Shown here: piece by piece, positions 1-55,214 of the stretch
Layout of the letters: the number at the start of each line of letters is the position of its first letter
Numbering within the stretch: position 1 is the first letter of the stretch
NCBI GenBank assembly: GCA_018062825.1
Contig: JAGORL010000002.1
Coordinates: forward strand, 129,629 to 193,628
From: Patescibacteria group bacterium
GTDB lineage: Bacteria; Patescibacteriota; Patescibacteriia; UBA9934
DNA: 64,000 nt
Reading direction: 5' to 3'
Notes under the pieces: model-generated
Databases searched by the model: none
Told to the model about the DNA's origin: nothing
The model's input: the letters and a program-made list of their open reading frames with translations, nothing else
Program-made: the position numbers and the translations under genes

Positions 1-99
1 AGAGCAGCGAGCGGAGCAAGGACTCCGGTCGCGGCTGGAAGCGCAACAAGCCCCTCTCCGCCCGCGAGCGCAAGCAGCTCGTCCGGAGCGCCGCCTAGG
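1..99 (+). CDS. 3' end of an acidic protein gene (partial). Its C-terminus 'DSGRGWKRNKPLSARERKQLVRSAA*' is paralogous to the C-terminus of the 615..1361 product.
   Basis: Frame-3 translation ends at TAG 97-99. The C-terminus carries an RGWK basic tail similar to '...DRGWKSKRQWQKGRDNRLSRHEARAGLNSIVRRQSA*' of the downstream gene. A terminator follows. Confidence 0.35.
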
Positions 100-124
100 T
101 CGCCTCGCGACCAAGCAGGCACAC

Positions 125-170
125 GCCACCTTATTTCCTCGCACGGAAGTAGGGTGGCTTTCTTTTTATC
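125..170 (+). terminator. Rho-independent terminator: GCCACC...GGTGGC hairpin followed by a T-tract.
   Basis: gccaccttatttcctcgcacggaagtagggtggc followed by tttctttttat, immediately after the partial ORF stop. Confidence 0.6.
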
Positions 171-240
171 CCTACTCCCTACCTACAGCCCCAACGTAGT
201 CCGGCCCTACCGGACGAAGTGGGCCTATACCCCACCCCCT
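168..240. repeat. Dispersed structured repeat, copy A. Core CAGCCCCAACG-gtccgg/ccggac hairpin-CGAAGTGGGCC, with CCCTACTCCCTA flanks.
   Basis: Core 186-225 recurs at 16086-16119, 31252-31291 and 46164-46203 with the same flanks but compensatory stem changes. Confidence 0.75.
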
Positions 241-243
241 CCA

Positions 244-272
244 TTGACTTTTTCGCTAATTTCTGCTATGAT
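244..272 (+). promoter_or_regulatory. Sigma70-type extended -10 promoter: TTGACT-N17-TGcTATGAT.
   Basis: ttgactttttcgctaatttctgctatgat. The spacer and -10 are nearly identical to the promoter at 46089-46117, with a shared 'ttttcgctaatttctgctat' motif. Confidence 0.6.
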
Positions 273-315
273 CCTCGGTTGCTCACTTTTCAGAAATGAA
301 AAGATTGGGCACAAT

Positions 316-489
316 CATCACCATGTTTTCGGAGGATAGTGATGGCGTTCTGGGCTGGTTCTGCTAGTCCTTAACGCCGGCAGGCAGGTACCTCACCGGG
401 CTCCGGCTCGCTGATGGCACGCGCGCTTGTCACGGCATACATCGTTTTCGAACGATCACTGCGCCCCTGCCTCCGAAAACATGGTGATG
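316..489 (+). other. Structured 5'-leader element bounded by a perfect 20-bp inverted repeat (316-335 and 470-489). An internal UUCG hairpin lies at 441-456. It could be a cis-regulatory RNA or a MITE-like insertion.
   Basis: catcaccatgttttcggagg and cctccgaaaacatggtgatg are exact reverse complements. The internal hairpin is atcgtt-ttcg-aacgat. The element lies between the 244-272 promoter and the ATG at 615. Confidence 0.35.
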
Positions 490-614
490 ATTGTTTTTAA
501 CGAAGTTAAAAAACATCCCGAACAACATGAGGGATCCTGTGCCATAAACACAGGACATCATTACCACCGCCCCTTTCACTCAGTCATCCGCAACCCCGCA
601 CCCAGGAGCACGCC

Positions 615-1361
615 ATGTTCTTCACCTCCCTCTCCAGCGACCACGAAGGTAACGAGCTGCTCACCGTGTACGTCGGCAACGGCCTCAACCTCGCCGTCCT
701 CATGACGGCAATCGAGAACCCCGATCTCAGCGATGAGATCGACGAAGCGATCGAGGAGGGGCGCAACGTCGTCACGACGATGATCCTCATCGAAGACGAA
801 CCCCACGAGCAGCCGTTCGACGGCGTTGGCGGGTGGTCTACCGAGGACATCCCCCTGGAAAATGTCTTCATCTCTGAGGACCTCCCGCGCGTCTGGACCT
901 TGGAGGACGACGGGATGACGTGCTACATCTTCATCCCGGTCATCGCGCTCGATGAAGCGGATCAGGAGGAAGAGCTGCCGCCCCCGAGCGAGCCCTTCTT
1001 CCGACAGAATGACGAGCGTGAAGACGCGGTCTACAACGAGGAATGGGCACCGGTCTCGACCAACGATCTGATGACGGACGACGAGACCGACAGCATCGAC
1101 CCCGCCGATCTGGAGTGGTGGAGCGAGGAGGAGCTCAACGCCATCCTCATTCCCGTCGAAGAAGACGAAGAGCCCAACGAGCTCGCGGATCTGGACGTGG
1201 ATCTCACCAAGAACGACGCGCCCGACCCCAAGAAGGGCCAGCGTATCAGCGATCGCGGCTGGAAGAGCAAGCGTCAGTGGCAGAAGGGACGGGACAACCG
1301 TCTCTCCCGCCACGAGGCCCGAGCTGGCCTCAACTCCATCGTCCGGCGCCAGAGCGCCTGA
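615..1361 (+). CDS. Highly acidic (D/E-rich) hypothetical protein, GC-rich.
   Basis: 248-aa ORF with plausible composition. The antisense 264-aa ORF is L/V/G/R-rich junk. A + strand promoter lies upstream and a + strand terminator downstream. Confidence 0.6.
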   Translation: MFFTSLSSDHEGNELLTVYVGNGLNLAVLMTAIENPDLSDEIDEAIEEGRNVVTTMILIEDEPHEQPFDGVGGWSTEDIPLENVFISEDLPRVWTLEDDGMTCYIFIPVIALDEADQEEELPPPSEPFFRQNDEREDAVYNEEWAPVSTNDLMTDDETDSIDPADLEWWSEEELNAILIPVEEDEEPNELADLDVDLTKNDAPDPKKGQRISDRGWKSKRQWQKGRDNRLSRHEARAGLNSIVRRQSA

Positions 1362-5668: not shown

Positions 5669-7688
5669 GAACTACCCAGAAATGACGATCGGTGTGAAGA
5701 TCAGTTCTAAATATATAAGAGTCATCACCAAAATCATCCTCACGTTCAGGTGGCGAAGCAAAGCGAACCACCTGATCAAAACCAAGATCAAGATTGACTC
5801 GATTATCGTAACCACCCATCTGCTTCAAAAGTTGCAGCGTGTAATAACCACGATCAATCGCCGCCACCACTGTTTGCGGTAAGTCGTACACAAAACGAAC
5901 GGTGTGCGTAGCACCCAAATCCACAAAGGCAAAACCGCCAAAACTCGTTAAACCGAATTCATCTGCAACCGCCACTGCTCCCGGAGAACGCGTCGGATCA
6001 CGATCCGGTGAATCCTTCATAATCCCCTGCGCGTAAACAAGCTCAGAACCACGAGGCACAAAAAGTCGCAAATATGTACGGTAGCGATTCGTTTTGTAAT
6101 CAGCAACTGTTGCCGTATTTTCATACACGATCGTTACCGTTGCCCGGTAGCCACCGTTATATGGTCGCAACTGGTACGTAACATCACGCTCCATGACAAG
6201 ATCAGTCTTCAAGCCACCAAGATTAGCGTCAACAAGCATGAGCGTGTCATCAGCAAGTCCTGGGTTAATGACAGCTGCCCAATGAGCATCGATAAGCGCC
6301 TTTTGAGTAGCGTCATCGTAGCTCATAAGAGCAATGGATTTTTGCGCGAACTCTTCATTGAGAAGCTCAAAAAACTCCGGCCAATCTGACGGTGAAAGAT
6401 CAAGAAGCGCATCAACTGCCGCCTCAGTTACTGGACCAAGAATTGATTTACGATCCTCTTCAGACAATCCTTGATCAACATAGTCTTGCTCAACTTGATG
6501 CTGCAAAATCTCATACAAGTTCTCCGAAGTATAGGTAATATCATTCACCGTAATCGGACCAGTGAGCGTAAGAAGATCGGAAATGAACGTTGGCGTAATA
6601 CCAACAACGCCGTGAATCTCCGGCACCGGAACGCCAGCATGCGCATGCTCTTGTCTAAAAAGCTGCACAGTATCACGTGACGTCTGCTCAAAATCAGGAG
6701 CCCACGTACCGTCTCTGAAATACCAGTTGTACTGATCAAGAAAACTTCGGTATGGCGGTGGCGGATTTACAAAATACGGCACCGGACAATTTGATTGATC
6801 GTAGCGTGGCGGACGACCACATACAAGATCATCAACCGCATACGAGTCATCAGTAACAAGATCAACGATCTGACCATCTTTTGTAGTTAAAAGTCCGTAA
6901 TAGCCAATAAAGCCGCCGCCCGGACGCAGCTCAGCATTATTCAAGAAAAGAATAAGGAACTGACGCTCAGCACCAACGCCACCAAACTGCTCAGCGATCG
7001 CTGAAAATGGTGTAAGGACATCAACAAGCGAGATAACTTTCGGTAGCAACTCAACGACCTCATCAACCTGAGTAGCAAGCGCCGGGTGCACTCCAAGCGA
7101 CTGCACACGCTCTAAATCCTGTTCTGCAAGCTGTAAATCGCTCTGCATATCCCGAAGAAGCGGGGTGAATCGAGCAAAAACCGTAATAAGCGCCGCGCGT
7201 TCCGCATCACTAAATGATCCGTACCCAACCTCGGCAATATCATTATTTGCAAACAACTCCTCCTCAAGTCCGGCTTCAGCAAAAACATCCTCAACAATCG
7301 CTACGCCATCTGCCGCAGTATCAAGCATGGTGTCCGCAATACCAAGCACCAGAACAACCGCCTGATAATTATCACGAGTGAGCGTAACATTCTCTAAATA
7401 ACTAAAATAGGAAACACCGTAACGCAGTTTATCCAAGCCTTTACGCGCACGAACAACGGCTGACTCAGCCTTGCGCATATCAACCTCCTCAAGCGCAACC
7501 ATTACATCATTTTTCGATTGCAACAGGAGCTGCGCTCCACGAGCAATGTGCCAAAAGCCAATACCAAAGTACAAAACAACGATCGCAACCGCCGAAACAA
7601 ATGATAAAAATAAAAAGCGTGCGAACGTTAATCGTCGCGGCTTTCGCTCATAAGATTGTGGGAGCTCAGGAAAAGCGGTCACAGGCAA
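5658..7688 (-). CDS. Large membrane-anchored protein with an 'LRPGGG' motif (DUF4012-like). Paralog of 3611..5668.
   Basis: ELRPGGGFIGYYG, GYRATV and TSFGGF motifs, with an N-terminal TM segment. Confidence 0.5.
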   Translation of the reverse strand: MPVTAFPELPQSYERKPRRLTFARFLFLSFVSAVAIVVLYFGIGFWHIARGAQLLLQSKNDVMVALEEVDMRKAESAVVRARKGLDKLRYGVSYFSYLENVTLTRDNYQAVVLVLGIADTMLDTAADGVAIVEDVFAEAGLEEELFANNDIAEVGYGSFSDAERAALITVFARFTPLLRDMQSDLQLAEQDLERVQSLGVHPALATQVDEVVELLPKVISLVDVLTPFSAIAEQFGGVGAERQFLILFLNNAELRPGGGFIGYYGLLTTKDGQIVDLVTDDSYAVDDLVCGRPPRYDQSNCPVPYFVNPPPPYRSFLDQYNWYFRDGTWAPDFEQTSRDTVQLFRQEHAHAGVPVPEIHGVVGITPTFISDLLTLTGPITVNDITYTSENLYEILQHQVEQDYVDQGLSEEDRKSILGPVTEAAVDALLDLSPSDWPEFFELLNEEFAQKSIALMSYDDATQKALIDAHWAAVINPGLADDTLMLVDANLGGLKTDLVMERDVTYQLRPYNGGYRATVTIVYENTATVADYKTNRYRTYLRLFVPRGSELVYAQGIMKDSPDRDPTRSPGAVAVADEFGLTSFGGFAFVDLGATHTVRFVYDLPQTVVAAIDRGYYTLQLLKQMGGYDNRVNLDLGFDQVVRFASPPEREDDFGDDSYIFRTDLHTDRHFWVVLDE

Positions 7689-7738
7689 TGCGAGAGATAC
7701 TCAAAACACTGCAAGTATACCATTCAAACAACTACACA

Positions 7739-8785
7739 CTATCGGCCAATGTACGATCGTATAACTGCCCCGCTGACACGTTGAGTTTTCTTAAGCGCAA
7801 GTCGCTTGGCAAACATTGACGAAAAAACTGCGCGCGAAGACCAAAGCATCCGACGTGTTTCAGGCTCGAGCAAGATCGCATAAAGCAAACGAATAGCTTC
7901 ACCGGGAAAAACACGCCATCCATAACGTAGCGCATCGCCACAGCCAAAGTGCTTAATCAAGAAGTACAGCTGATTACGCGTTGCAAGTGCCGCAGTAAAC
8001 GGACTACGCCCCCTGCGATCCGCCAAAACCTGACGAACTGAGCGCTTATTAGCGCCATACATGCCACGATAATGCCAAGCCTTAGCCGCTGGAACAAAAC
8101 GCGTCTCATGCCCAGCCTTCCGCATTCTAAGCGCTAAATCACAATCCTCTCGATAAGCAAAAAAATCACCATCAAAAAGCTCACCATTTTCTAAAAGCTC
8201 CTTAACAACCGTAGCACGCATCATGAAAAGCGCACCCGCTGGCCCAATAATGTCCCGACGCTCATCATACTGACCCTTATCAACCTCACCAGCGCCACGA
8301 TCAACAAATCGCCACGATGCCTGCAGTTGCAAACCAGTCGTATCTAAAACGTCAGAAAGCGATGGCGTCTGTGACTCAGGATCAGCTCCCCCCTCCGCAG
8401 CAAACGCCCGATAAAGCTTTGGTTGCACTGCTGCCACTGAAACATCTTGCATTAACGCCTCGTACAATTGCCCTAAACATCCGGCATCAAAAATAAGATC
8501 GTAGTTTGAAAAAACGATCGCTTTATCAGACAGGTCATCACCCCAACGCTCTAAAGCGACACGTACAAGTTGATTGTGACCAGTAGCAAAACCTAAATTC
8601 TTAACATTCCGAGCCACAAGGTACTGCGGAAAGTGATCTTGCATGTACGTAAGGGAGCCGTCAGAACTCCCATTATCAAGCACACGAATCGTAAAATCAC
8701 GATACGACTGCTGCGTGAGGCTAGAAAAAAGTTCCGGCAAATATTTCACGCCGTTCCAGGTGAGCATGTGCAAACTAATCTTCAT
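7739..8785 (-). CDS. Glycosyltransferase family 2.
   Basis: The N-terminal 'LTWNGVKYLPELFSSL...RVLDNGSSDGS' is GT-A/GT2 DXD-region architecture. Confidence 0.75.
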   Translation of the reverse strand: MKISLHMLTWNGVKYLPELFSSLTQQSYRDFTIRVLDNGSSDGSLTYMQDHFPQYLVARNVKNLGFATGHNQLVRVALERWGDDLSDKAIVFSNYDLIFDAGCLGQLYEALMQDVSVAAVQPKLYRAFAAEGGADPESQTPSLSDVLDTTGLQLQASWRFVDRGAGEVDKGQYDERRDIIGPAGALFMMRATVVKELLENGELFDGDFFAYREDCDLALRMRKAGHETRFVPAAKAWHYRGMYGANKRSVRQVLADRRGRSPFTAALATRNQLYFLIKHFGCGDALRYGWRVFPGEAIRLLYAILLEPETRRMLWSSRAVFSSMFAKRLALKKTQRVSGAVIRSYIGR

Positions 8786-42257: not shown

Positions 42258-42280
42258 TATTCCCTATACCCTATTCCCTA
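42258..42280. repeat. CTATTCCCTA-type direct repeats (flank motif only).
   Basis: ctattccctataccctattcccta. On the minus strand this lies at the -35 region of the TGaTATACT extended -10 promoter of 40988..42238. Confidence 0.5.
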
Positions 42281-42331
42281 AAAAGAAAACCGGCGCACCC
42301 CTCCCACCCGAAGGTAGAAGAAGTGCGCCGG
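42281..42331 (-). terminator. Intrinsic terminator with a UUCG loop and G-U wobble pairs (minus-strand specific), followed by a U-tract.
   Basis: Minus strand: ccggcgcac-uucuucuacc-UUCG-ggugggagggg-ugcgccgg-uuuucuuuuu. Confidence 0.7.
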
Positions 42332-42356
42332 TGCGTGCCGCGCGGAGTCGTGTCCG

Positions 42357-45218
<2,862 letters not shown>

Positions 45219-45287
45219 GAGAACCTCGGGCTACAGGGTGAATAGGAACGTGATTTTTCACACGCTAATTGTGAACGAACTAGGCTA

Positions 45288-45316
45288 AATATAGCAAAAA
45301 AATGGCATTTTGTCAA
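45288..45316 (-). promoter_or_regulatory. Extended -10 promoter TTGACA-N17-TGcTATATT.
   Basis: Minus strand: gaTTGACAaaatgccatttttttGcTATATTtagcc, about 63 nt upstream of the ATG at 45218. Confidence 0.6.
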
Positions 45317-45317
45317 T

Positions 45318-45360
45318 CAAAAAAAGAACTCCCGTACCGCCTTTTCAGGTGGTACGGGAG
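45318..45360 (-). terminator. Rho-independent terminator: 10-bp stem CUCCCGUACC/GGUACGGGAG followed by a U-tract.
   Basis: Minus strand: ctcccgtacc-acctgaaaaggc-ggtacgggag-ttcttttttt. Confidence 0.7.
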
Positions 45361-45366
45361 CACGCG

Positions 45367-46071
45367 TCACGCGCAACGCTTGCGGCGCAACAAGTAACCG
45401 ACGAAGGGCAGCAGGATTACCGGGAAGCCGCCACTCGAGTCGCACCGACAACCCGGATCACCCAGGAAGGGCGGCGGACTCGTGGAGCACCGGCAGCCGG
45501 TTGCGGGAAAGCCACCGGTGTCACCAGAGCACTCGCCCTCGATCTCATCCACACAACCGTCGCAGTTGTTGTCACGACCGTCCTCCGGAATCTCGGGCGC
45601 ACCAGGGTAGGTGGCCGCGTCCCAGGGATCGCAGTCGTCGAGCGCCTCGTAGACGTCGAGCGCCACGAAGCCATCGCCGTCGCAGTCGTTGTCGAGCACG
45701 TCAGCGTCGCCCTCATCCCAGAGGCCGTCGCAGTCGTTGTCGATCCCGTCACACACCTCCACGGCGCCCGGATTGGTCTCCGAGTCGCCGTCGTTGCAGT
45801 CGTGTACGGCGGGATTGAAATTGCCGTAAACGTAGGCCGTGGCCATAGGGGCGTTCGGATCATCCGGATCCTCGTGCCACTCCGGCCCCTCCTCCAGGCA
45901 CCCAAACGGGTCCGCGTAGCGGGGCCACTTCTTCGTGGCCTCGTGACAGTTCACGAAGCCGTCGCCATCGACGTCATCTTCGGTCTTGTTACACCCCCCA
46001 AGGAGGGTGAAGAGCAGGAACAGGAACATGGTAAAGAGCGTCTTCACGGCGCCTCCAGGGTTGGGGTTCAA
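45367..46071 (-). CDS. Acidic lipoprotein with three MopE-like repeats and a C-terminal Cys / hydrophobic / Arg-rich tail (PEP-CTERM/MYXO-CTERM-like).
   Basis: Lipobox 'LLGGC'. 'PGAVEVCDGIDNDCDG' repeats. C-terminus 'GCRCDSSGGFPVILLPFVGYLLRRKRCA*'. Confidence 0.7.
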   Translation of the reverse strand: MNPNPGGAVKTLFTMFLFLLFTLLGGCNKTEDDVDGDGFVNCHEATKKWPRYADPFGCLEEGPEWHEDPDDPNAPMATAYVYGNFNPAVHDCNDGDSETNPGAVEVCDGIDNDCDGLWDEGDADVLDNDCDGDGFVALDVYEALDDCDPWDAATYPGAPEIPEDGRDNNCDGCVDEIEGECSGDTGGFPATGCRCSTSPPPFLGDPGCRCDSSGGFPVILLPFVGYLLRRKRCA

Positions 46072-46088
46072 GAAATCGTGAAGAGTAA

Positions 46089-46117
46089 AATATAGCAGAA
46101 ATTAGCGAAAATGTAAA
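46089..46117 (-). promoter_or_regulatory. Extended -10 promoter TTTACA-N17-TGcTATATT.
   Basis: Minus strand: cTTTACAttttcgctaatttcTGcTATATTttactc. Shares 'ttttcgctaatttctgctat' with the promoter at 244-272. Confidence 0.6.
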
Positions 46118-46149
46118 GAGTCTAGGGTGTGGAGTATTCAGCCATTTAT

Positions 46150-46272
46150 CTACTCCCTACTTACAGCCCCAACGTAGTCCGGCTCCGCCGGACGAAGTGG
46201 GCCCTACTCCCTACTTACTACTCACTACTCTCTATCCCCTATTCCCTATTCTCTATACCCTATCCCCTAAAA
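46150..46272. repeat. Dispersed structured repeat, copy D (core 46164-46203), with an extended array of CTAYTCCCTA-type direct repeats.
   Basis: cagccccaacgtagtccggctccgccggacgaagtgggcc flanked by ctactccctac...ctatcccctattccctattctctataccctatcccct. Confidence 0.75.
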
Positions 46273-46321
46273 GAAAAAGCGCGCCCCTCACTCACCCCCG
46301 AAGGAATGAATGAGGAGCGCT
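46269..46321 (-). terminator. Intrinsic terminator with a UUCG tetraloop. The stem pairs only with G-U wobbles on the minus transcript.
   Basis: Minus strand: agcgcuccucauucauucc-UUCG-ggggugagugaggggcgcgcu-uuuucuuuu. Confidence 0.75.
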
Positions 46322-46346
46322 ACGTCACCTCACGAGCTCGACCGAC

Positions 46347-47705
46347 CTACAGGTCGATCTTGCAGATGAAGTGGTACTCGTCCGGGTGCTTGTTGCAGAC
46401 GCGAGCCGAGGGAGTGCTGTCCTCGGTCAGCGAGATCGTGTACGTATCGCCATCGATCTCGAGGCGATCCACGTGCTCCACCACGCTTCCGCCGCTGTTC
46501 TCGAGGCCCCAGGTCTCGTCGTCGCCGTCGAAGTCGCCGTCACCGTTCTCGTCGCACCAGAGCTGGAGACGGTACTCTTCGCCGTCGTCGAACTCGAGCT
46601 CGTCTTCGTGGGTGTTGGCGTCGTCGGGGTTGCCGACCTTCATCGGCCACTCGTCGCCCTCCTCGTAGTCGTCGTCGTGGACGAACATCGCCTGCCACTC
46701 CTCGCCGCTGCACCACGAGGACTGCTTGACCACGCTGACCTCGACCTCGTCCCCGTTGCTGGACTCGTCGCAGTCCTCGCAGTCGGAGTCGTCGTCGTCC
46801 TCGTCGCCGTCGCAGTCGTCGTCGACGCCGTTCTCGATCTCGTCCTCGTCCGGGTTCACGTCCGGGTCGTCGTCGTCGCAGTCCTCGTCGTTGCGGATCC
46901 AGCGCGAGGACGGCTGCTCGCCGATCTCGTACTCGTCGCAACGATCTTCGTCGCCGAAGCCGTCGCCGTCCGAGTCGTAGCAGTACTCGACCTCGTCGTC
47001 GCTCTGGCACTCGTCGTGCTCGTCCTCGTCGCCGTCGTCGCAGTCGTCGTCGTTGTCGACGTACCCGTTCGGCTCCTCGCCGTCCTGGTACATCGCGCAC
47101 TGGTCGGGGTCGCCGTACCCGTCGCCGTCGTCGTCGTCGCACCACTCGTCCTCGTCGTTGTCGTTGTCGTCGTCCGAGTCCTCGTCGAGGACTCGACAGA
47201 CGAGGTCTTCGCTGCGCGGGAGCTTCACGCACTCGCCGTAGTCGGGCGAGGCGCTCTCGTCGTCGCGGAGGTCCGAGACGTCGTACTCCTCACCGTCGAT
47301 CATGAGCTCCTCGATGTTGACGGTGATCCGCGAACTCGAGGAGCTGTTCTCCACGAGCCAGGTGTCGTCGTCCCCATCGCATCCGCCGTTCACGTAGATC
47401 AGGTCGCCGGCGTAGATGCCGATGACCCCTTCGAGCGTGTCGTCGTCCCCCTCTTCGAGCGGGTCGTCGTCCCAGCGGTCGGAGTTGTTGCGGCCGTTGT
47501 CGGTGATGTTGCGGACCCACAGCGACCAGTCGTCGTTCTCGCACCAGTCGCCGTCACGGGTGACGCTGATCTCAGCGTCCTCCCCGAGGCGCCAGAGCGC
47601 GTCGCTGTTGTCGGTGTTGTCGCTGCCGTCTCCCACGAGCTGGGTGGACGGGCTGCAGGCGCTCGTGGCGATGAGCGCCAGGAGGCCGAACGAGAAACGG
47701 GTCAT
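46347..47705 (-). CDS. Acidic D/C-rich lipoprotein: N-domain, MopE-like repeats, C-domain, ending in 'CKIDL'. Paralog of 48059..49315.
   Basis: Lipobox 'IATSAC'. 'DDDCDDGDEDEHDEC...DCDGDEDDDD'. C-terminus 'HFICKIDL*'. Confidence 0.7.
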   Translation of the reverse strand: MTRFSFGLLALIATSACSPSTQLVGDGSDNTDNSDALWRLGEDAEISVTRDGDWCENDDWSLWVRNITDNGRNNSDRWDDDPLEEGDDDTLEGVIGIYAGDLIYVNGGCDGDDDTWLVENSSSSSRITVNIEELMIDGEEYDVSDLRDDESASPDYGECVKLPRSEDLVCRVLDEDSDDDNDNDEDEWCDDDDGDGYGDPDQCAMYQDGEEPNGYVDNDDDCDDGDEDEHDECQSDDEVEYCYDSDGDGFGDEDRCDEYEIGEQPSSRWIRNDEDCDDDDPDVNPDEDEIENGVDDDCDGDEDDDDSDCEDCDESSNGDEVEVSVVKQSSWCSGEEWQAMFVHDDDYEEGDEWPMKVGNPDDANTHEDELEFDDGEEYRLQLWCDENGDGDFDGDDETWGLENSGGSVVEHVDRLEIDGDTYTISLTEDSTPSARVCNKHPDEYHFICKIDL

Positions 47706-47800
47706 GAGACCCTCCGTGCGGAAATGGCCCTAATGGCCGGTTGATTGGGAATGTTCCCCGTCGAAATCTGCAGGCTGATCCCGCCGAAATCGAACGGGCA

Positions 47801-47830
47801 ATACTACCAAAGAAACAGGAGCGATGTCAA
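47801..47830 (-). promoter_or_regulatory. Promoter TTGACA-N18-TAGTAT. An alternative TGGCAA-N16-TATAAT lies at 47851-47880.
   Basis: Minus strand: cTTGACAtcgctcctgtttctttggTAGTATtgcc, about 100 nt upstream of the ATG at 47705. Confidence 0.45.
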
Positions 47831-47969
47831 GCTTTTTGCTTAGGGTTAGCGATATTATAAGGAACAAAAAAGCGATTGCCAGATTGGGCGTCACAACCCC
47901 TCCAGTCAATCACTTGCACTAGTAATACGTTTGAAACATCAAAAAGTTTCACTAACCCACTAAAATATC

Positions 47970-48027
47970 CTTTAAAAGTAGAAGAGCGCCCCTCACTCAC
48001 TCCCGAAGGAATGAATGAAGAGCGCTC
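47970..48027 (-). terminator. Intrinsic terminator of the same family (UUCG loop, cctcactcactccc arm).
   Basis: gagcgcccctcactcactcccgaaggaatgaatgaagagcgctc. Its loop and arms are nearly identical to the 46269-46321 terminator. Confidence 0.65.
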
Positions 48028-48058
48028 ACGTGCCGTCTCGCTAGCTCAGCCAGTCGAC

Positions 48059-49315
48059 CTAGAGGTCGATCTTGCAGAGCCAGTCGAATCGGTCTTCGTC
48101 CTCGGGCAAGGTGCACTCGCCGGCGGAAGGGGTGTCGTCCCGATCGTCGCGGCGGATGTACTCCTGCCCGTCGATCTCGATCGACTCGAAGTTGTCCGCA
48201 CCGGACATGACGCCCCACGTGGTGGAGTCGTCCCACGGATCGTCGTTCTCGTTCGAGTCGCAGAAGGCCTGCACGGAGAAGATCTCCCCGTCCTCGACCT
48301 CGAGCTCGCCGGTCACGTCGTCGGTGCTGACCATGTCCATGGCCAGCTCCTCGTCCGCGTACCGATCGTCCTCGCCGTTCGCCTCGCGGTGAAAGCGGAC
48401 CTGCCACTGGTCGGAGTTGCACCAGGTTGCGTTCATCGCGACCATGACGTCGACGATGGTGCCACCGTTCGTGCAGTCCTCGCAGTTGCTGTCGTCCGTG
48501 TCGACGTCGCCGTCGCAGTCGTTGTCGACGTTGTCGTCGACTTCGTCTGCGTCGGGGTTGATCTCGTCGTCGGAGTCGTCGCAGTCGTCGTCGTTCGACA
48601 CGTAGTCGGAGGGTTCGTCACCCTCTTCGTACATGTCGCACTCGTCGCTGTCGCCGAAGCCGTCGCCGTCGTCGTCGAGGCAGAACTCGCTGGTCTCGCC
48701 GTCGGTCTCGTCCTCGTCCTGCTCGTCCTCGTCGGGAGTGCCGACGCGGCAGATCAGGTTGTGGTCGGAGTCGTCGTGGATCCGGCAGGTGCCGGCCGCG
48801 GGACTCGTGGTCGCCGCGGAGGAGACGTCGATGACGTACTCCACGTTGTCCACTTCGAGCCGGGAGATGTGGGTGATGTCCCCGTTCTCCACGAGCCAGA
48901 ACTGCTCGTCCATGACGCCGGTGCCGTTCAGGAGGAACTTGTCCCCCTCTTCGAGGTTGACGTCGCCGACCAGGATCCGGCTGTCACCGATCTCCACGAT
49001 GTTCGTCGGGAAGACGAAACCATCGAGATCGGTGGTGACCCAGAACTCCCAGTCGCCGTCGAGATCGTTGTACACGTCGGAGCTGAGCGTGACCTCGAAG
49101 GTCATCTCGCTGCCGGTCGTGTCGTCGGTCTCGTCGTCGGTGTCGTCCTCGTCCGAGTCGCTGCCGATCGTGTCGACGTTGTCGTCGTTCGGCACGACCC
49201 CGTTGCCGGGGCTCATGCTCTCGTCGTCGGTGTCGCCACCGACGCGCTCCACAGAGGGGACGCCGCAAGCGGCGAGAGACACGAAGGACAGGGTGAACAG
49301 GATGCTGCGGAACAT
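48059..49315 (-). CDS. Acidic D/C-rich lipoprotein ending in 'CKIDL'. Paralog of 46347..47705.
   Basis: Lipobox 'LAAC'. Shared N- and C-domain motifs (WLVEN, IEIDG, TWG). C-terminus 'FDWLCKIDL*'. Confidence 0.7.
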   Translation of the reverse strand: MFRSILFTLSFVSLAACGVPSVERVGGDTDDESMSPGNGVVPNDDNVDTIGSDSDEDDTDDETDDTTGSEMTFEVTLSSDVYNDLDGDWEFWVTTDLDGFVFPTNIVEIGDSRILVGDVNLEEGDKFLLNGTGVMDEQFWLVENGDITHISRLEVDNVEYVIDVSSAATTSPAAGTCRIHDDSDHNLICRVGTPDEDEQDEDETDGETSEFCLDDDGDGFGDSDECDMYEEGDEPSDYVSNDDDCDDSDDEINPDADEVDDNVDNDCDGDVDTDDSNCEDCTNGGTIVDVMVAMNATWCNSDQWQVRFHREANGEDDRYADEELAMDMVSTDDVTGELEVEDGEIFSVQAFCDSNENDDPWDDSTTWGVMSGADNFESIEIDGQEYIRRDDRDDTPSAGECTLPEDEDRFDWLCKIDL

Positions 49316-49414
49316 GGTGCCTCCAAGGCAGGGTGGCCGGAATGGCCGAAGTCACAGTAACTATGTGGAAAGGTTCGCGTCGAAACCGATGTTGCCATCA
49401 ATCTCGAACAGTCT

Positions 49415-49443
49415 ATAGTAACAGAAATTTAGGAAAATGTCAA
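49415..49443 (-). promoter_or_regulatory. Extended -10 promoter TTGACA-N17-TGtTACTAT.
   Basis: Minus strand: ccTTGACAttttcctaaatttcTGtTACTATagact. Confidence 0.6.
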
Positions 49444-49474
49444 GGGTGAACGTATGTATTTAGGCTAATATAAG

Positions 49475-49520
49475 CCATAAAAGAAGAATTCCCCCACGCA
49501 GCCGAAGCTGGTGGGGGAAC
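49475..49520 (-). terminator. Rho-independent terminator with a UUCG tetraloop.
   Basis: Minus strand: guucccccac-cagc-UUCG-gcug-c-gugggggaa-uucuucuuuuau. Confidence 0.7.
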
Positions 49521-49541
49521 GAGCGTCGACCGAAGTCGATG

Positions 49542-50183
49542 CTAGAACGTGTGGTCGCAGGTCGTCGGACCTGGCTCGAGGACTTCGCCGTCGGAGAAGA
49601 GGAAACAGGCGGAACCGCGAGCGAACTGGTCCTGCCAGTAGTACTGGCTGGAGTTCGGCACCTCCGCCCACTCGAGCCGCGACGTGTCGTCGAGGTCGTT
49701 GAGGGCGCGGAAGTTCACGCGGTGTGGGCCTTCGAGGGTGAGGTTGGCGCAACGCCAGGTCTCCCCCGCGTGCTCCCACACATACGCCTCGACGGCCGAG
49801 GTGACCCAGTCGCCGCAAGCGGAGTTGGGATCCTCGGAGTCGGGGACGCCGTCGTTGTCGCAGTCCTCGTCCTCGTCGACCCACGGCTCTCCGGACAGGC
49901 CGTAGCCCACCAGGTATCCGACCTCGGAGTACCCGAACAGATCGTTCCGCCCGCAGAAGCTGGCGACCTGACCGTTCTCGTTCGTGAACGCCAGGTGGTA
50001 CTGCTTCCCGTCGGGCTCGCCGTTCTCGTCGAAGTCGGACGACTCGTCGCCGGCGTCGCGGTCGGGACGGTCGCTGCTCTCGCAGGCGACCTCCTCCCCG
50101 GCGCTGTTGGTGCACACCGGCTGTTGGCAGCCGATGAGGAACAGGGACGCGAGGATGGTGTTCAGGAACAAGCTGCCATTCAT
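49542..50183 (-). CDS. Acidic secreted lipoprotein (about 213 aa) with Asp/Cys-rich segments.
   Basis: The start was trimmed to MNGSLFLNTILASLFLIGC (lipobox). The 37-residue N-terminal extension in the ORF track lacks signal-peptide character. Confidence 0.6.
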   Translation of the reverse strand: MNGSLFLNTILASLFLIGCQQPVCTNSAGEEVACESSDRPDRDAGDESSDFDENGEPDGKQYHLAFTNENGQVASFCGRNDLFGYSEVGYLVGYGLSGEPWVDEDEDCDNDGVPDSEDPNSACGDWVTSAVEAYVWEHAGETWRCANLTLEGPHRVNFRALNDLDDTSRLEWAEVPNSSQYYWQDQFARGSACFLFSDGEVLEPGPTTCDHTF

Positions 50184-50376
50184 GGCGGACTCCAGGATGT
50201 AGGGTTTTCGAACCGGTGGTGAGCATCCACGCCGCTTGCGCAGCGCAGAAGGCGGCGAAGACACTCGCCCGAAAAGCGCTCTAGAGTAAAGCATTTTTCG
50301 GGAGAGACCTTCGCCACTGCTCGCCAGATATAAATCCGTGGAAGTGGGGCCAGAATGGCGCTGTAAAGAACGTAAG

Positions 50377-50405
50377 TTTATACCATTTTTTTACAGAAAT
50401 GTCAA
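50377..50405 (-). promoter_or_regulatory. Extended -10 promoter TTGACA-N17-TGgTATAAA.
   Basis: Minus strand: ccTTGACAtttctgtaaaaaaaTGgTATAAActtac. Confidence 0.5.
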
Positions 50406-50467
50406 GGGTGAAGGGTACAAATGCAGCTAAAATTGGCGGAAATAGCCGTAAAGACGAACAGCATCAT

Positions 50468-50585
50468 AAACCCCTTCCCGAACGAAAGTGCCTCGCCTGT
50501 AGGCTACGGCCGAAGGAGGGATCTGGCTTTCGCGTTAGTCTAAAGTACAGGACCAAGACCCCTCACTTACGTTCGGGGAAGGACC
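50468..50585. other. Candidate structured RNA: 13-bp inverted repeat (ccccttcccgaacg / cgttcggggaagg) closing about 90 nt with internal helices.
   Basis: Seen directly in the 370-nt intergenic region between the lipoprotein promoter and the tsf terminator. Strand and identity are unresolved. Confidence 0.25.
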
Positions 50586-51313: not shown

Positions 51314-52054
51314 TTACTTACTAGCGTCGAGCTTCTGGATCTTGTCCTTCTTGGCTTCCGCTGGAACAACAGACTGCTTCTTGCCTTCAAGGGCAGCAGC
51401 ACCAATCGTGTTAGCAATAAGCTCCAAAGAACCACGAGCGTCATCGTTTGCTGGGATAACGTACGTAATACCAACTGGGTTTACGTTTGTGTCGACCGCA
51501 GCAATAACAGGAACGCCCATAGCGATCGCCTCACGAACAGCGGTCTTCTCAACGCGAGCGTCAAGAACGAAAATCGCGTCCGGCAAACGAGTAACTGTGG
51601 ACATACCACCAATCTTCTCATCAAGTTCAGCGATCTCACGATCAAACTGCAACTGCTCAAGCTTGGTGTACTTCTTCAAATCACCCTTCTCACGCTTATC
51701 CTTCAAATCAAGGTAGTGGCGAATAAGGCGCTGAATCTGAGCAAAGTTCGTAAGGGTACCACCAAGCCAACGAGTGTTGACGTATGGCATACCTGCCTCC
51801 TTTGCAGCCTTGGCAACGATATCCTGTGCCTGAGCCTTGGTTCCTACAAAAAGGATAGAACCACCGCGGCTTGTTGCCGCTGTCACAAAGGAGCCTGCGC
51901 GCTGAAGCGCCTCAGCTGTCTTCTCAACATTGATAACGTGAACACCGCTCTTAACGCCGTAAATAAACGGCTTCATCTTTGGATGCCAGCGGCTCTTTTG
52001 GTGACCGAAGTGGACACCGGCCTTGAGCATCTCAAGGGAAGATGGAATCTTCAT
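51314..52054 (-). CDS. rpsB: 30S ribosomal protein uS2.
   Basis: MKIPSSLEMLKAGVHFGHQKSRWHPKMKPFIYG... Confidence 0.95.
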   Translation of the reverse strand: MKIPSSLEMLKAGVHFGHQKSRWHPKMKPFIYGVKSGVHVINVEKTAEALQRAGSFVTAATSRGGSILFVGTKAQAQDIVAKAAKEAGMPYVNTRWLGGTLTNFAQIQRLIRHYLDLKDKREKGDLKKYTKLEQLQFDREIAELDEKIGGMSTVTRLPDAIFVLDARVEKTAVREAIAMGVPVIAAVDTNVNPVGITYVIPANDDARGSLELIANTIGAAALEGKKQSVVPAEAKKDKIQKLDASK

Positions 52055-52200
52055 AGTTTACTTTCCTTTTTACCACGATAGTGCCCGACAAAGGGCCCAA
52101 GCAAGTGCCTGGGAGGAACCTTTGGGAAAACGCACTATCTGCGTTGAATAAATGTGTTTGAGAGGAAATCTCAGAACGGGGCGAATAGTAGCGAAGAATG

Positions 52201-52247
52201 AATAAAATGGCAAATAAAGAGGTCGACCACCGTGAAAGCAGTCGACC
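52201..52247 (-). terminator. Putative terminator: 7-bp stem GGTCGAC/GTCGACC followed by a U-rich tract.
   Basis: ggtcgaccaccgtgaaagcagtcgacc followed on the minus strand by tctttatttgccatttt. Confidence 0.4.
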
Positions 52248-52259
52248 ACGCTAAGGCCG

Positions 52260-52739
52260 TCATGAAGACCGCGCCTTAGAAAACAACTCATCAACCACCC
52301 GCTCCTGCTCCTGCGCGTAGGCGTTATGCGCCCAAACAAGTCGGCCGCAGCGCAAGCACAGCACACACGTAGTGCCATGACGCTTGGGGGTAACGCTGAA
52401 CCTATCAAGTGCGCTCGGCAGGTAGACGTCAACAAGCTGCTCAGCATGCGATGGCCCGCAGGCAGAGCATGCCGCCGGACGTTCCACCGGACTCGTGAAC
52501 GCATCGAAAAGCCGCATGCACACACGCTCGAGCGTGAGATCAGCCCAACGAGCTTCGAACATCGCCGCGCACCGGTCACACCGCAGATGCGCAACAACCG
52601 ACTGCGTCACCGGCAAGCCGATAACGCCCCGATTGGTCTCCCCCATCTTCTGCATGCGCGTACGAAGCGCAAGTACGCCATCGGCGTACACACACCCTTC
52701 GTGCACCTCACCCGGCATTCGACCAGACCGCCTGACCAT
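52260..52739 (-). CDS. GC-rich Cys-rich hypothetical protein (2x CxxC), possibly DUF177/YceD-like.
   Basis: 'CDRC...CSAC...CVLCLRC' Cys pairs. This is the best of several overlapping ORFs in a GC-rich patch. Confidence 0.35.
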   Translation of the reverse strand: MVRRSGRMPGEVHEGCVYADGVLALRTRMQKMGETNRGVIGLPVTQSVVAHLRCDRCAAMFEARWADLTLERVCMRLFDAFTSPVERPAACSACGPSHAEQLVDVYLPSALDRFSVTPKRHGTTCVLCLRCGRLVWAHNAYAQEQERVVDELFSKARSS

Positions 52740-52760
52740 GAGCCACCTCCAGAAACGATC

Positions 52761-53771
52761 TTACCGAAGAAACATCGCGTCGCCAAATGAAAAGAAGCGA
52801 TACTCCAAACGCTTCGCTTCCTCGTATGCCGCAAGCACTCGCTCACGACCGACAAAAGCCGAAACAAGCACAAGAAGCGTAGACTTTGGTAAATGAAAGT
52901 TTGTAATCAGTCCATCAATCATCAAAAACGTATATCCCGGCTTAATGAACATGTTCACCTCGCCAGCATAAGCAACAAGTTCGCCACCATGAAGTGACGC
53001 CACGCCTTCAAGAACGCGTGTCGTGGTCGTACCAACCGCAACAATCCGCCGACCTTCACGCTTCGCAGTCATGATGCGCGTACTAGCTCCTTCTGAAACA
53101 CTAACCCATTCGCTATGCATCTCATGACCCTCAAGCGTTTCTGACTGCACGGGCCGAAACGTACCAATGCCAACGTGCAAAAGCACGTACTCAATCTGCA
53201 CGCCCTTCGTACGAAGCTTATGCAAAAGTTCATCTGTAAAATGAAAACCTGCCGTTGGAGCCGCTACCGAGCCAACATCTTTGGCGTACACCGTCTGATA
53301 ATCTTTTTCACTCGTAGACGCATCCTTTACGTACGGAGGTGTTGGAATCTGACCAAACTCATTACAAAAAGCGAGCATCTCCCCGGCAGTCATCGTTGTT
53401 TTCAATCGAACAACGCCATCATTAGCTTTGGCAGTAATAACAAATGACTGACCAAAAATACGAACCGTACCTTTTACTGAGAACTTCTTACCCGGCTTAA
53501 GCAAACACTCAACCTCGCCGTCAGCAATTCTCAAAACAAACACTTCAACTCCCCCATCAATCAAACGGGCCTTAAAAACCTTCGAACGATTAAAAACAAG
53601 AACATCTCCGGCGTTAAGTTCATCAATAATGTTAAAAAACTGCCTATGCTCAATAGCGCCCGTGGCTCGATCCATTATTAAAAGCTTGGAGTGATCCCGT
53701 GGATTAACCGATCGCTGAGCGATAAACTCAGGGGGCAATTCGTAGTCAAAATGACTGATCGGCGTTGGCAT
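52761..53771 (-). CDS. queA: S-adenosylmethionine:tRNA ribosyltransferase-isomerase.
   Basis: MPTPISHFDYELPPEFIAQRSVNPRDHSKLLIMDR... with full-length similarity to QueA. Confidence 0.9.
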   Translation of the reverse strand: MPTPISHFDYELPPEFIAQRSVNPRDHSKLLIMDRATGAIEHRQFFNIIDELNAGDVLVFNRSKVFKARLIDGGVEVFVLRIADGEVECLLKPGKKFSVKGTVRIFGQSFVITAKANDGVVRLKTTMTAGEMLAFCNEFGQIPTPPYVKDASTSEKDYQTVYAKDVGSVAAPTAGFHFTDELLHKLRTKGVQIEYVLLHVGIGTFRPVQSETLEGHEMHSEWVSVSEGASTRIMTAKREGRRIVAVGTTTTRVLEGVASLHGGELVAYAGEVNMFIKPGYTFLMIDGLITNFHLPKSTLLVLVSAFVGRERVLAAYEEAKRLEYRFFSFGDAMFLR

Positions 53772-53842
53772 AAGTGGGCATCATGACAAAAAGTCAGGAA
53801 AAAGAAAAGCCCGCCACCAAGATCGCTTGATGGCGGACTGCG

Positions 53843-55087
53843 TCAGACGACGACCTTGCGCTCGGCGTCTGCAAGAAGCGCGCGAGCGTCAGCAAGGATC
53901 TGCTCCTCTTCGCTCAGAGCATGCGCGCAGCGCTCGTACTCCACACAGGTCTGCTCGTAGAGCGCCTTGAGTCGATCCCGCTCCGCTGCAGCCGACTTCT
54001 CGGCGCCGGAAGCGCGCTTCACTGCGCTCGTTGCGTCCTTCACCTGCCGGCGCAAGCCAGCAACGCTCTGCAGAAGCTCCGTCCGCTCCCGCAACCCCCG
54101 AAGCTCCTCCTCGAGATCGTCATCCGACAGCCGAAGCGCTGTCGGTACGACAAGCGGCTCGACGGTGCAACCAGGGGGTTCACGAGTCATGATGGCAGGA
54201 TCCTCCGAGACGAAGTCGTCGACAGACGGAAAGACAGGAACGGGAGACTCTTCAAGCACGATTGCCACCCGCTCGACCACGACCTTGCTCAGGTGTGCGA
54301 TGGCGGCATCGTACTGCTGCGGATCGGGATAGATCCGACTCAGATCCACTTCTCCCTGCACCGCATTCAGTGCCGGCAGCTCAGCAAAGCGCTTCTGCAT
54401 GCGCTCTGGCCGCAAGACGTACACGTTCCCGCGCTTATGGCGCTGGTACACGCGAATCGCCTTCAGCTTGGTGAAGTACTCGAGCGCCTCCCGCTCCGTC
54501 ACCTCACGGAACTCCGGAAGTCCGCACAGCGTTTGCACGAAGTCAGCCGTGAAGACTTCATCTGTCGGGTACGTAGCCTCTACCCGCACCACGACCGCGA
54601 TCAGGTTGCGCAGGCTGGCGTACAGCCTCATGCACACATTGACCACGTCAGTCTGCGAATCTGGTGGTTGGTTCGGCGCCGTTTGCGCCGCCACCGGCTT
54701 CGCGCCCTCATCACCAGCCTCGTCCACGGTGATGTACGAGCCATACTCCTTGATCATCTCGCGCCAGACCTGTAGGCAGGCTGGGCTGAAAGATGCAGTC
54801 TGCACATCCGGGTGTTCCGGGTTCAGGATGAACTCAGGCTCACCCATGTTCGGCCGATCGATCTTGACGACCATGGCCGGTCGGCCAAGTGCCACGTTCG
54901 GTCGTAGCGACACTTGGCGCAGAATATTCGCTGCCGACCGCGTCTCGCGGTTCACGGAGCGCAGACTCTGAAACCGCTTCACTGCGTCTTCCAGACCACC
55001 GATGTAGTCGGAAAGGCCCATCGGCCCGTTTCGCAGCAAGCTCAGCAGAGCCTCCTTGAGGTCCTGTATTGACTCGGACGTTCGCAA
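53843..55087 (-). CDS. GC-rich hypothetical protein with a C-terminal coiled coil. Probable TTG start.
   Basis: 414-aa ORF. An in-frame TGA lies immediately upstream of TTG with the SD-like sequence agaggtg. A promoter lies upstream. Confidence 0.45.
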   Translation of the reverse strand: MRTSESIQDLKEALLSLLRNGPMGLSDYIGGLEDAVKRFQSLRSVNRETRSAANILRQVSLRPNVALGRPAMVVKIDRPNMGEPEFILNPEHPDVQTASFSPACLQVWREMIKEYGSYITVDEAGDEGAKPVAAQTAPNQPPDSQTDVVNVCMRLYASLRNLIAVVVRVEATYPTDEVFTADFVQTLCGLPEFREVTEREALEYFTKLKAIRVYQRHKRGNVYVLRPERMQKRFAELPALNAVQGEVDLSRIYPDPQQYDAAIAHLSKVVVERVAIVLEESPVPVFPSVDDFVSEDPAIMTREPPGCTVEPLVVPTALRLSDDDLEEELRGLRERTELLQSVAGLRRQVKDATSAVKRASGAEKSAAAERDRLKALYEQTCVEYERCAHALSEEEQILADARALLADAERKVVV

Positions 55088-55120
55088 TCGTCACCTCTCA
55101 TATCCCGATTGGGACAGCGA

Positions 55121-55149
55121 ATATTAGCAAAATAAAGGCTCGCAGTCAA
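55121..55149 (-). promoter_or_regulatory. Extended -10 promoter TTGACT-N17-TGcTAATAT.
   Basis: Minus strand: aaGTTGACTgcgagcctttatttTGcTAATATtcgc, about 27 nt before the start. Confidence 0.55.
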
Positions 55150-55214
55150 CTTGATACCCAGCTTGACAACACGGCCCCCATCCCTTACCCTTCCCCCATC
55201 ATAAAAATAACCGT

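Follow-up and report, generated by a model that had tools for sequence, protein, structure and literature searches.

GC-rich single-gene cassettes, probably acquired horizontally, among the housekeeping genes of a Patescibacteria chromosome

We analyzed a 64,000-nucleotide stretch (the window) of a Patescibacteria metagenome-assembled genome (MAG) (assembly GCA_018062825.1, locus tags KBC55_, contig JAGORL010000002.1 of 197,750 bp, positions 129,629 to 193,628), in which four GC-rich segments, here called islands 1 to 4, interrupt a GC-poorer backbone. The island genes are probably horizontally acquired and recent; they would be moron-like single-gene expression cassettes drawn from an essentially unsampled GC-rich gene pool. 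The original prediction for this DNA had described the mosaic and attributed it to genes anciently acquired, perhaps from a high-GC donor in view of Myxococcota-like motifs, and then re-wired to host promoters. A foreign origin remains consistent with the atypical codon and dinucleotide usage, the high-GC amino acid signature, and the absence of islands 3 and 4 from relatives, whereas the ancient date, the re-wiring, and the Myxococcota donor are not supported.

The mosaic itself is confirmed by sliding GC and by per-gene G+C content at third codon positions (GC3). All four flagged segments are GC-rich (0.61-0.66 versus 0.485). Sliding GC reaches 0.59-0.66 over 42001-50500, 0.58-0.59 over 1-1500, 0.62 over 54001-55000, and 0.54 over 52001-53000, compared to 0.46-0.53 in the backbone. 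Backbone GC3, counted per gene, is 0.443 ± 0.043 (range 0.37-0.54; n = 44 genes); relative to this distribution the eight island genes lie at 0.66-0.94 (z = 5.1-11.7), and their first and second positions (GC1 and GC2) are indistinguishable from those of the backbone. When the island proteins were re-encoded with backbone codon usage, the expected GC3 was only 0.42-0.45, and amino acid composition is therefore ruled out as the cause of the excess. The original prediction had asked whether GC3 would become uniform once composition was controlled, and it does not.

All codon families in the islands have moved toward C or G endings (for example, AAG 98%, ATC 95%, and TTC 90%), and GAC accounts for 80% of Asp codons versus 30% in the backbone. 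The suggestion that Asp is encoded almost only by GAC is accurate for islands 1 and 2 (0.68-0.95), whereas island 3 (0.29, n = 7) and island 4 (0.50, n = 24) depart from it. The GC-normalized dinucleotide signature of the islands is aberrant (delta* z = 2-12), and the island proteins carry the amino acid signature of high-GC organisms, with R/(R+K) of 0.76 versus 0.57 (p = 0.005) and a FYMINK fraction of 0.17 versus 0.23 (p = 5e-5). A codon usage and base composition that deviate from those of the host, a hallmark of an acquired islet, are thus present, as is a GC content unlike that of the flanking genes, by which morons are recognized.

The GC excess ends at start and stop codons, gene by gene. 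Five spacers within or beside island 2 have a GC content of 0.45-0.50, and backbone intergenic DNA has 0.457. The four segments do not exhaust the mosaic, as two further GC-rich genes lie at the window edges (1-98 and from 63727; Table 1), and at least 10 GC-rich accessory genes are found in the ~82 kb examined of this ~48% GC chromosome. Their insertion sites are GT|holB, downstream of tsf, queA|rpsB, rpmE|queA, and gyrB|secE, and their neighbors include rpsB, tsf, queA, rpmE, prfA, gyrB, secE, nusG, and holB.

As read from the sequence, most island genes would be monocistronic units that run from promoter to terminator; the island-3 gene is an exception, since it starts only 21 nucleotides (nt) after queA. 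Upstream of the island-2 and island-4 genes, a consensus scan found nine sigma-70-like sites of the form TTGACA-17-(TG)nTATATT, which we treat as predicted promoters, versus 3.7 expected by shuffling. Ribosome-binding sites (RBSs) of the GGAGG type stand ahead of the island gene starts, and hairpins of 11-20 bp, several of them UUCG-looped, lie directly 3' of the stop codons and are followed by T-runs. Leaders of ~100 nt at 47706-47800 and 49316-49414 precede the genes for the 452- and 418-amino-acid (aa) proteins of island 2, respectively. Both leaders are conserved in three contigs with orthologous cassettes (L082, GCA_044706975.1; L083, grouped with L084 under SRR27710271/2; and L122, JGI 3300032144), and both end in a GGCC-N5-GGCC hairpin just ahead of the GGAGG, which may be regulatory or stabilizing. 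A similar hairpin also stands ahead of the RBS of a cassette in genome L014. As a general cassette hallmark the GGCC-hairpin leader was rejected, being present only in the two window paralogs and that one L014 cassette.

These regulatory parts belong to the genes rather than to the host. Terminator, promoter, leader, and RBS are kept together with the genes in L082, L083, and L122. Divergence between cassette orthologs is 0.10-0.32 in the spacers and 0.29-0.49 at four-fold degenerate sites, and because the spacers diverge less than the four-fold sites, they must be functionally constrained parts of the cassettes. Since the spacers are conserved with the genes elsewhere, the promoters were not borrowed from the host. 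The proposed re-wiring to host promoters is contradicted both by this conservation in L082 and L122 and by a whole unit that is present in L014 and absent from L013.

One component of the spacers is specific to this host. A repeat element of ~160 nt consists of 14-nt-period TAGGGAATAGGG-type repeats and a 76-nt core with a GTCCGGC...GCCGGAC hairpin. Besides the copies in Table 1 (repeats D16 and D20), a further copy lies at 31236-31311, and the copies are 86-90% identical. The element matches nothing in Rfam, and a search of 120 other loci did not recover it; across the 64 kb, no known RNA family was detected, neither a tRNA nor any other Rfam match. The spacer between terminator and promoter that measures 275 nt in the window measures 158 nt in L122, and the difference is exactly the D20+D16 element. 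Because the orthologous L122 spacer is without it, the element is a secondary, host-specific insertion, and it looks like a miniature inverted-repeat transposable element (MITE). The occurrence of the repeat in both island and backbone spacers had raised the option of native spacers around foreign genes, which was rejected given the secondary insertion evident from L122 and the conservation of the spacers with the genes. In a related Patescibacterium (L009, 16118-16701), tandem CCCTGTTCCCTG motifs in a spacer are analogous to the CCCTATTCCCTA repeats of the window.

Comparison with relatives shows a sporadic distribution of the cassettes. RpsB of the window host is 70-73% identical to that of four MAGs and 50-60% identical to that of Uhrbacteria and Magasanikbacteria, and the backbone DUF4012 and DUF5667 proteins are consistent with bacteria of the Candidate Phyla Radiation (CPR). 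In L002, L003, and L004, rpmE-queA-rpsB-tsf is contiguous, and the sites of islands 3 and 4 are empty; this same-site comparison is limited to islands 3 and 4, as synteny breaks at the sites of islands 1 and 2. The closest relative on all backbone genes, L026, encodes a 361-aa positional homolog of the island-4 protein with 25-28% identity and a GC3 of 0.63, and island 4 may therefore be older.

Two genomes that share ~87% identity over the backbone provide a clean pair of a filled and an empty site (L014 6985-7627 versus L013 7566-7615). The insert of ~640 nt lies at a bidirectional intergenic terminator, with no target-site duplication visible, and comprises a promoter (TTGACT-17-TGTGATAGT), a leader hairpin, an AAGGAG motif, a coding sequence (CDS) for a 145-aa lipoprotein with a GC3 of 0.84, and a terminator hairpin. 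On its promoter side, the insert has a GC content of only 0.33-0.35. The unit gained or lost is thus a whole cassette, of which only the CDS is GC-rich.

Such islands recur within the phylum. Among 72 rpsB-centered loci of at least 6 kb, nine carry GC-rich islands, defined as an interval more than 0.12 above the median GC of the locus, and all nine are from Patescibacteria. Their background GC is 36-48%, island GC3 reaches 0.93, and several of the products are lipoproteins. In L017 (Magasanikbacteria GW2011_GWC2_37_14, ~36% GC), an asparaginase-like gene with a GC3 of 0.88 adjoins its low-GC paralog; this xenolog pair (5807-6910 and 7105-8133) belongs to a conserved enzyme family. Some Patescibacteria are themselves high in GC (L012, 65% GC; L021, 62% GC). 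L012 and L024 were considered as carriers of homologous cassettes and rejected, as they have ordinary metabolic genes at the hotspot.

The acquisition of island 2 appears recent. The window genes for the 418-, 452-, and 213-aa proteins have GC3 values of 0.91-0.94, and their orthologs elsewhere have 0.95-0.97: 0.97 for the 418-aa gene in both L082 and L083 and 0.95 for the 213-aa gene in L082. In L122, a block with the same gene order has CDS GC3 values of 0.96 (452-aa ortholog) and 0.79 (234-aa ortholog) between flanks of 0.48-0.51 GC. The three 418-aa orthologs were used to polarize third-position changes by majority rule, with S denoting G or C and W denoting A or T. On the window branch, we counted 18 S>W, 1 W>S, and 14 S<>S changes, compared to 6, 2, and 36 on the L082 branch and 2, 1, and 31 on the L083 branch. 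The S>W to S<>S contrast between the window and the other two branches combined (8, 3, and 67) is pronounced (Fisher p = 1.7e-6), and first and second positions show no directional difference between branches. The window copies are only beginning to decay toward AT, and their relatives are still in a GC3-preserving regime. Barely ameliorated GC3 with an early AT-ward decay is what a recent import of island 2 into a lower-GC genome would produce, and the ancient acquisition originally proposed does not fit these genes. The spread of GC3 from 0.66 to 0.94 suggests several acquisition events of different age or source.

Table 1. Island and edge genes of the window with their predicted promoters and terminators and the spacer repeats
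Feature	Positions	Strand	Details
Left-edge gene, 3' end of a 418-aa acidic orphan	1..98	+	GC3 0.97 in the visible part, 0.92 for the whole gene
Terminator of left-edge gene	125..175	+	Hairpin GCCACC...GGTGGC and T-run, read from sequence
D16/D20 spacer repeat copy	165..245	.	Host-specific
Island-1 gene, 248-aa acidic orphan	615..1361	+	25% Asp+Glu, no signal peptide; GC3 0.84, z = 9.4
Terminator of 953-aa gene	42289..42332	-	20-bp stem, UUCG loop
Island 2, 953-aa acidic lipoprotein	42357..45218	-	Lipobox LTGC, 12 MopE-type repeats; GC3 0.82, z = 8.8
Promoter-like site upstream of 953-aa gene	45288..45316	-	TTGACA-17-TATATT, TG-extended
Island 2, MopE-repeat lipoprotein, ~220-234 aa	45367..46071	-	Lipobox LGGC; GC3 0.80, z = 8.3
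Promoter-like site	46089..46117	-	TTTACA-17-TATATT, TG-extended, conserved in L122
D20+D16 repeat element between terminator and promoter	46109..46269	.	Not in the orthologous L122 spacer
Terminator of 452-aa gene	46281..46320	-	18-bp stem, UUCG loop, conserved in L122
Island 2, 452-aa very acidic lipoprotein	46347..47705	-	35% Asp+Glu, lipobox TSAC; GC3 0.94, z = 11.7
Promoter-like site	47801..47830	-	TTGACA-18-TAGTAT, TG-extended, then ~100-nt leader
Terminator of island-2 418-aa gene	47984..48027	-	20-bp stem, UUCG loop
Island 2, 418-aa acidic lipoprotein KBC55_03060	48059..49315	-	Lipobox LAAC; GC3 0.93, z = 11.5
Promoter-like site	49415..49443	-	TTGACA-17-TACTAT, TG-extended; entire spacer conserved in L082
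Island 2, 213-aa lipoprotein	49542..50183	-	Lipobox LIGC; GC3 0.91, z = 10.9
Terminator-like hairpin after island-3 gene	52221..52247	-	
Island-3 gene, 159-aa Cys-rich orphan	52260..52739	-	21 nt downstream of queA; GC3 0.66, z = 5.1
Terminator hairpin after island-4 gene	53808..53839	-	
Island-4 gene, 414-aa orphan	53843..55087	-	Coiled-coil-like C-terminus; GC3 0.74, z = 6.8
Promoter-like site upstream of island-4 gene	55121..55149	-	TTGACT-17-TAATAT, TG-extended
Right-edge gene, 5' part of a 448-aa orphan	63727..64000	+	Between gyrB and secE-nusG-rplK-rplA; GC3 0.73

In the scenario that we favor, each cassette would begin with a sigma-70-type promoter, in many cases one with an extended -10, and continue with a leader that carries a GGAGG RBS, a GC3-rich CDS, and a terminator made of a long hairpin and a T-run. 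Horizontal acquisition would have brought in entire cassettes, or small arrays of them, between conserved housekeeping genes, and the window copies would, after import, be starting to decay toward host composition. The spacers would be AT-rich because they are packed with conserved regulatory signals and not because they are host DNA. As the source, other Patescibacteria, or mobile elements of theirs, seem likelier to us than the Myxococcota. The analysis establishes the composition, the cassette anatomy, the presence or absence of units, the continuity of the assembly, and the direction of drift; the donor, the integration route, and the protein function are deduced. Genomic islands and horizontal gene transfer (HGT) make up as much as 13% of genome length in Patescibacteria, and most HGT into these genomes comes from within the phylum (PMC12455944).

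Several observations weigh against import followed by decay. No donor was identified, as protein searches recovered no full-length homolog in any high-GC organism, and no integrase, tRNA, att-like repeat, or phage gene lies near the islands. At 0.44-0.51 GC, the spacers are well below the intergenic DNA of sampled high-GC Patescibacteria (~0.55-0.63, delimited with a crude open reading frame [ORF] picker). Cassette orthologs are 54-89% saturated at four-fold sites, yet they keep a GC3 of at least 0.93 beside such spacers; the L082, L083, and L122 contigs are only 1.4-2.3 kb and too short to show the genome background. The island-4 gene and its positional homolog in L026 both have raised GC3 (0.74 and 0.63) at that low level of identity. 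Finally, AT-ward changes are depleted in a syntenic cassette gene that follows tsf in L013 and L014, two genomes of ~45% GC, within a block that is 89.8% identical. Its four-fold sites have 5 S<>S and 5 S<>W changes, compared to 6 and 61 in rpsB and tsf (p = 0.004). Its synonymous divergence (dS) is 0.205, versus 0.54 for rpsB and 0.61 for tsf, and its G<>C rate per G/C site is 0.028 (0.026-0.038 in rpsB and tsf).

The L013/L014 pattern, the high GC3 of the cassette orthologs near saturation, and the raised GC3 of the island-4 pair fit active maintenance better than they fit import and decay. Under such maintenance, a coding-region force would hold very high GC3 in low-GC Patescibacteria, whether or not the cassettes are mobile. 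The cassettes, often encoding lipoproteins or orphans, would then form a class whose CDSs are kept at a GC3 of ~0.85-0.97 in 36-48% GC genomes, and their foreign look would be a maintained property. The recurrence of such cassettes in hosts across that range agrees with this explanation, and selection on mRNA G+C content, stability, or structure, or recombination-linked GC-biased conversion, are candidate forces. However, the L013/L014 test comprises 10 substitutions in one gene of the sole usable genome pair, and low divergence would equally result if the two lineages had exchanged the cassette later on. Decay is clear in the window copy (18 S>W versus 1 W>S changes), so that any maintenance must be weak or lost there. 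The spacers are themselves constrained, so their AT richness is no proof of a force specific to coding sequences, and the codon preference opposes the G-avoiding translational set of the host, with a mechanism that is purely a candidate. We regard active maintenance as the main rival explanation, possible though doubtful.

A direct transfer from the Myxococcota or another well-sampled high-GC phylum, or phage morons left by a prophage, is improbable. MopE-type repeats are abundant in Myxococcota proteins, 21 of 32 metagenome loci with the MopE motif are in contigs of 0.64-0.76 GC, and the cassette anatomy is that by which morons are defined (PMC3594210). However, the 418-aa island-2 protein has three full-length relatives among 5.8 billion proteins, and no full-length Myxococcota homolog was found there. 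The other ~350 matches, many annotated as Myxococcota, cover 9-20% of the query through a Cys/Asp motif, and the likeness on which the proposed Myxococcota donor was based comes down to this MopE-type motif of ~30 residues. Among billions of proteins, only 4-12 are related to the non-repeat domains, and all of these lack annotation. The C-terminal non-repeat domain of the 953-aa protein, for example, has 12 representatives among 1.84 billion proteins, and a further indexed protein search with this domain gave no matches. The island-4 protein matched only itself, and the relatives of island proteins, 3-12 each, are all on short unclassified contigs. The choice between C and G in each four-fold family correlates between islands and host at r = 0.88 and between islands and high-GC Patescibacteria loci at r = 0.81-0.84, compared to r = 0.24-0.80 for most high-GC contigs bearing MopE motifs, which points weakly to Patescibacteria, with eight families in the comparison.

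Signs of a mobile element were likewise sought around the islands. For phage, there were no PHROG matches, none in 50,697 phage records, and none in IMG/VR, and no phage genes are among the annotated neighbors of the islands. The annotated neighbors also include no recombinase Pfam, and no flanking direct repeats of 10 nt or longer were found. As for integron marks, no integrase is among the annotated genes, and the palindromes are UUCG hairpins with T-runs, as judged without a formal attC model.

It is very unlikely that the island genes are native, with their GC content forced by an acidic composition rich in Asp, Gly, and Cys or by translational selection in highly expressed surface proteins. 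The extreme composition of the products (up to 35% Asp+Glu), the near-consensus promoters, GGAGG sites, and strong terminators, and the preference of host translation genes for C-ending two-fold codons (codon-shift correlation r = 0.45) would suit such an origin. The original prediction had kept it as an alternative, but the expected GC3 and two further controls all speak against it. In a metagenome scan keyed on the MopE motif only, genes with this motif track the GC content of their contig (21 loci at 0.64-0.76 and 11 at 0.37-0.47, with a difference near zero in both; n = 32), so that MopE-repeat genes on low-GC contigs are themselves low-GC and amino acid constraint is rejected. Secreted acidic proteins of the backbone also have normal GC3, namely, an S8 peptidase (0.43) and a 1365-aa protein (0.51).

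Translational selection fails on the identity of the favored codons. In two-fold families, the host translation genes tested (rpsB, tsf, rpmE, rplY, and prfA) use C endings in preference to T endings, but they avoid the G-ending codons favored in the islands, and translational selection is therefore rejected. Relative usage in translation genes versus islands is 0.16 versus 0.44 for GCG, 0.17 versus 0.55 for CCG, 0.00 versus 0.30 for CGG, 0.11 versus 0.43 for GTG, 0.15 versus 0.45 for ACG, 0.04 versus 0.32 for CTG, and 0.40 versus 0.80 for GAG. In addition, the island-3 and island-4 genes, which encode neither acidic nor secreted proteins, are GC3-rich as well, and the genes are absent from close relatives. 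The two secreted acidic backbone proteins belong to a cluster of normal GC3 (29204-38078), which also encodes an ECF-type sigma factor (37536-38078) and a DUF5667 protein.

A chimera of high-GC and low-GC organisms, created by assembly or binning, is barely credible, even though the source is a MAG with abrupt shifts in composition, as these shifts fall on start and stop codons gene by gene, the same architecture occurs in unrelated MAGs, and independent assemblies span every junction of islands 2 to 4. These assemblies are 99.8-100% identical to the window over the junctions (L127, 39698-43148; L001, 46156-50577; L088, 49329-51606; L089, 50223-51347; L086, 50552-55708; L087, 50552-53012), and mis-assembly is therefore excluded for islands 2 to 4. 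The original prediction had named coverage or mate-pair breaks at island edges as the sign of mis-assembly; a single assembly covers the junctions of island 1 and of the right edge. The window and L088 have only four differences in 2278 nt (99.8%), located at 50403-50488 and 50170; they affect the spacer that separates island 2 from tsf and the part of the 213-aa gene that encodes the signal peptide.

The products of the islands are mostly orphans. A lipobox at residues 14-27 was recognized in each of the five island-2 proteins by regular expression and visual check, and these proteins contain 17-35% Asp+Glu. The expectation that the islands encode only acidic or secreted proteins is thus correct for island 2, and the island-3 and island-4 proteins are neither. 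The 953-aa protein contains PF11617 (Cu-binding_MopE, a putative metal-binding motif) in 12 stretches (309.6 bits, E = 2.4e-94) and ends in a rare C-terminal beta domain, and the 234-aa protein contains PF11617 in two stretches (70.9 bits; gathering cutoff 27 in both cases). The 418-, 452-, and 213-aa proteins of island 2 miss this cutoff; degenerate MopE-type repeats are present in the first two, which are encoded by paralogous genes. For the proteins of islands 1, 3, and 4 and of the window edges, Pfam, NCBIfam, and PHROGs gave no family. A structural model of the 418-aa island-2 family predicts two beta-sandwich domains around a disordered acidic linker with Cys motifs and has no significant match in PDB, and modeling of the C-terminal domain from a single sequence gave a poor result (pLDDT 39). 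By inference, the island-2 products would be surface proteins that bind metal or calcium and through which an episymbiont varies its cell surface. Elsewhere in the backbone, a protein encoded at 38560-39699 (+) matches the Pfam family MATCAP (microtubule-associated tyrosine carboxypeptidase; E = 6e-21), which is unexpected for a Patescibacterium.

The long antisense ORFs of the islands, noted in the original prediction, are real, and one public annotation has called them as genes. In the gene calls of GCA_020049755.1, antisense ORFs of 921, 457, 449, 248, 227, 264, and 410 aa replace seven island genes (L085 11034-18776 and L124 12239-14719, equivalent to window positions 42480-50222 and 1-1370). 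The sense genes are backed by lipoboxes, Pfam repeats, the order GC3>GC1>GC2, and the orientation of promoters, RBSs, and terminators. The left-edge 418-aa gene is contained in full in L124 (13511-14767, minus strand). As a consequence of antisense calling in islands, spurious proteins enter the public annotations of such MAGs, and the real lipoproteins are missing from them.

The CPR/Patescibacteria are believed to rely on contact of their cell surface with the microbes that host them, and little is understood about the ways in which this surface repertoire changes. The cassettes described here would provide one route, in which ready-to-express units, many encoding acidic lipoproteins of a metal-binding type, land at intergenic terminators. 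The direction of the compositional shift is unusual, as the cassettes are GC-richer than the host at silent sites only, have AT-rich flanks, and recur in the clade. This recurrence implies either an unsampled GC-rich donor pool or mobile element or a natural test system for selection on synonymous G+C content. If GC3 is indeed maintained, it would be the opposite of the usual AT-rich signature of mobile and orphan genes in bacteria.

Parts of this arrangement resemble known systems. Like integron cassettes, the window units form arrays of single genes of foreign composition, each followed by an imperfect palindrome, but they differ in having their own promoters and hairpin/T-run terminators without an attC consensus, and no integrase was seen. 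Two of the products, the 953-aa protein (12 repeats) and the 234-aa protein (2 repeats), pass the Pfam threshold for MopE-type proteins (PF11617), a family abundant in Myxococcota. The window versions differ in being encoded by Patescibacteria and in combining a lipoprotein signal with non-repeat beta domains that have almost no relatives.

Phage morons are transcribed independently, each from its own promoter to its own terminator, have a deviant GC content, and are inserted between adjacent genes (PMC3594210). The window cassettes share the promoter-gene-terminator anatomy (here as predicted), a GC content unlike that of their neighbors, and insertion between genes that are adjacent in relatives, and they too often encode small lipoproteins or surface proteins. 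They differ in residing on a bacterial chromosome amid housekeeping genes, with no phage homologs found.

In the framework attributed to Lawrence and Ochman, acquired islands and islets are reportedly atypical at first and then ameliorate. The window cassettes are like such HGT islands and islets in their atypical composition and codon usage, their sporadic distribution, their drift toward host composition, and a cargo that is accessory, surface related, or without assigned function. Foreign DNA and ORFans in bacteria are usually AT-richer than the host, whereas the cassettes are GC-richer. They also differ from HGT islands in comprising one gene per unit without an integrase, tRNA, or att repeats, in adjoining the most conserved translation and replication genes, and in an excess that is confined to third positions, next to co-transferred regulatory spacers that are AT-rich.

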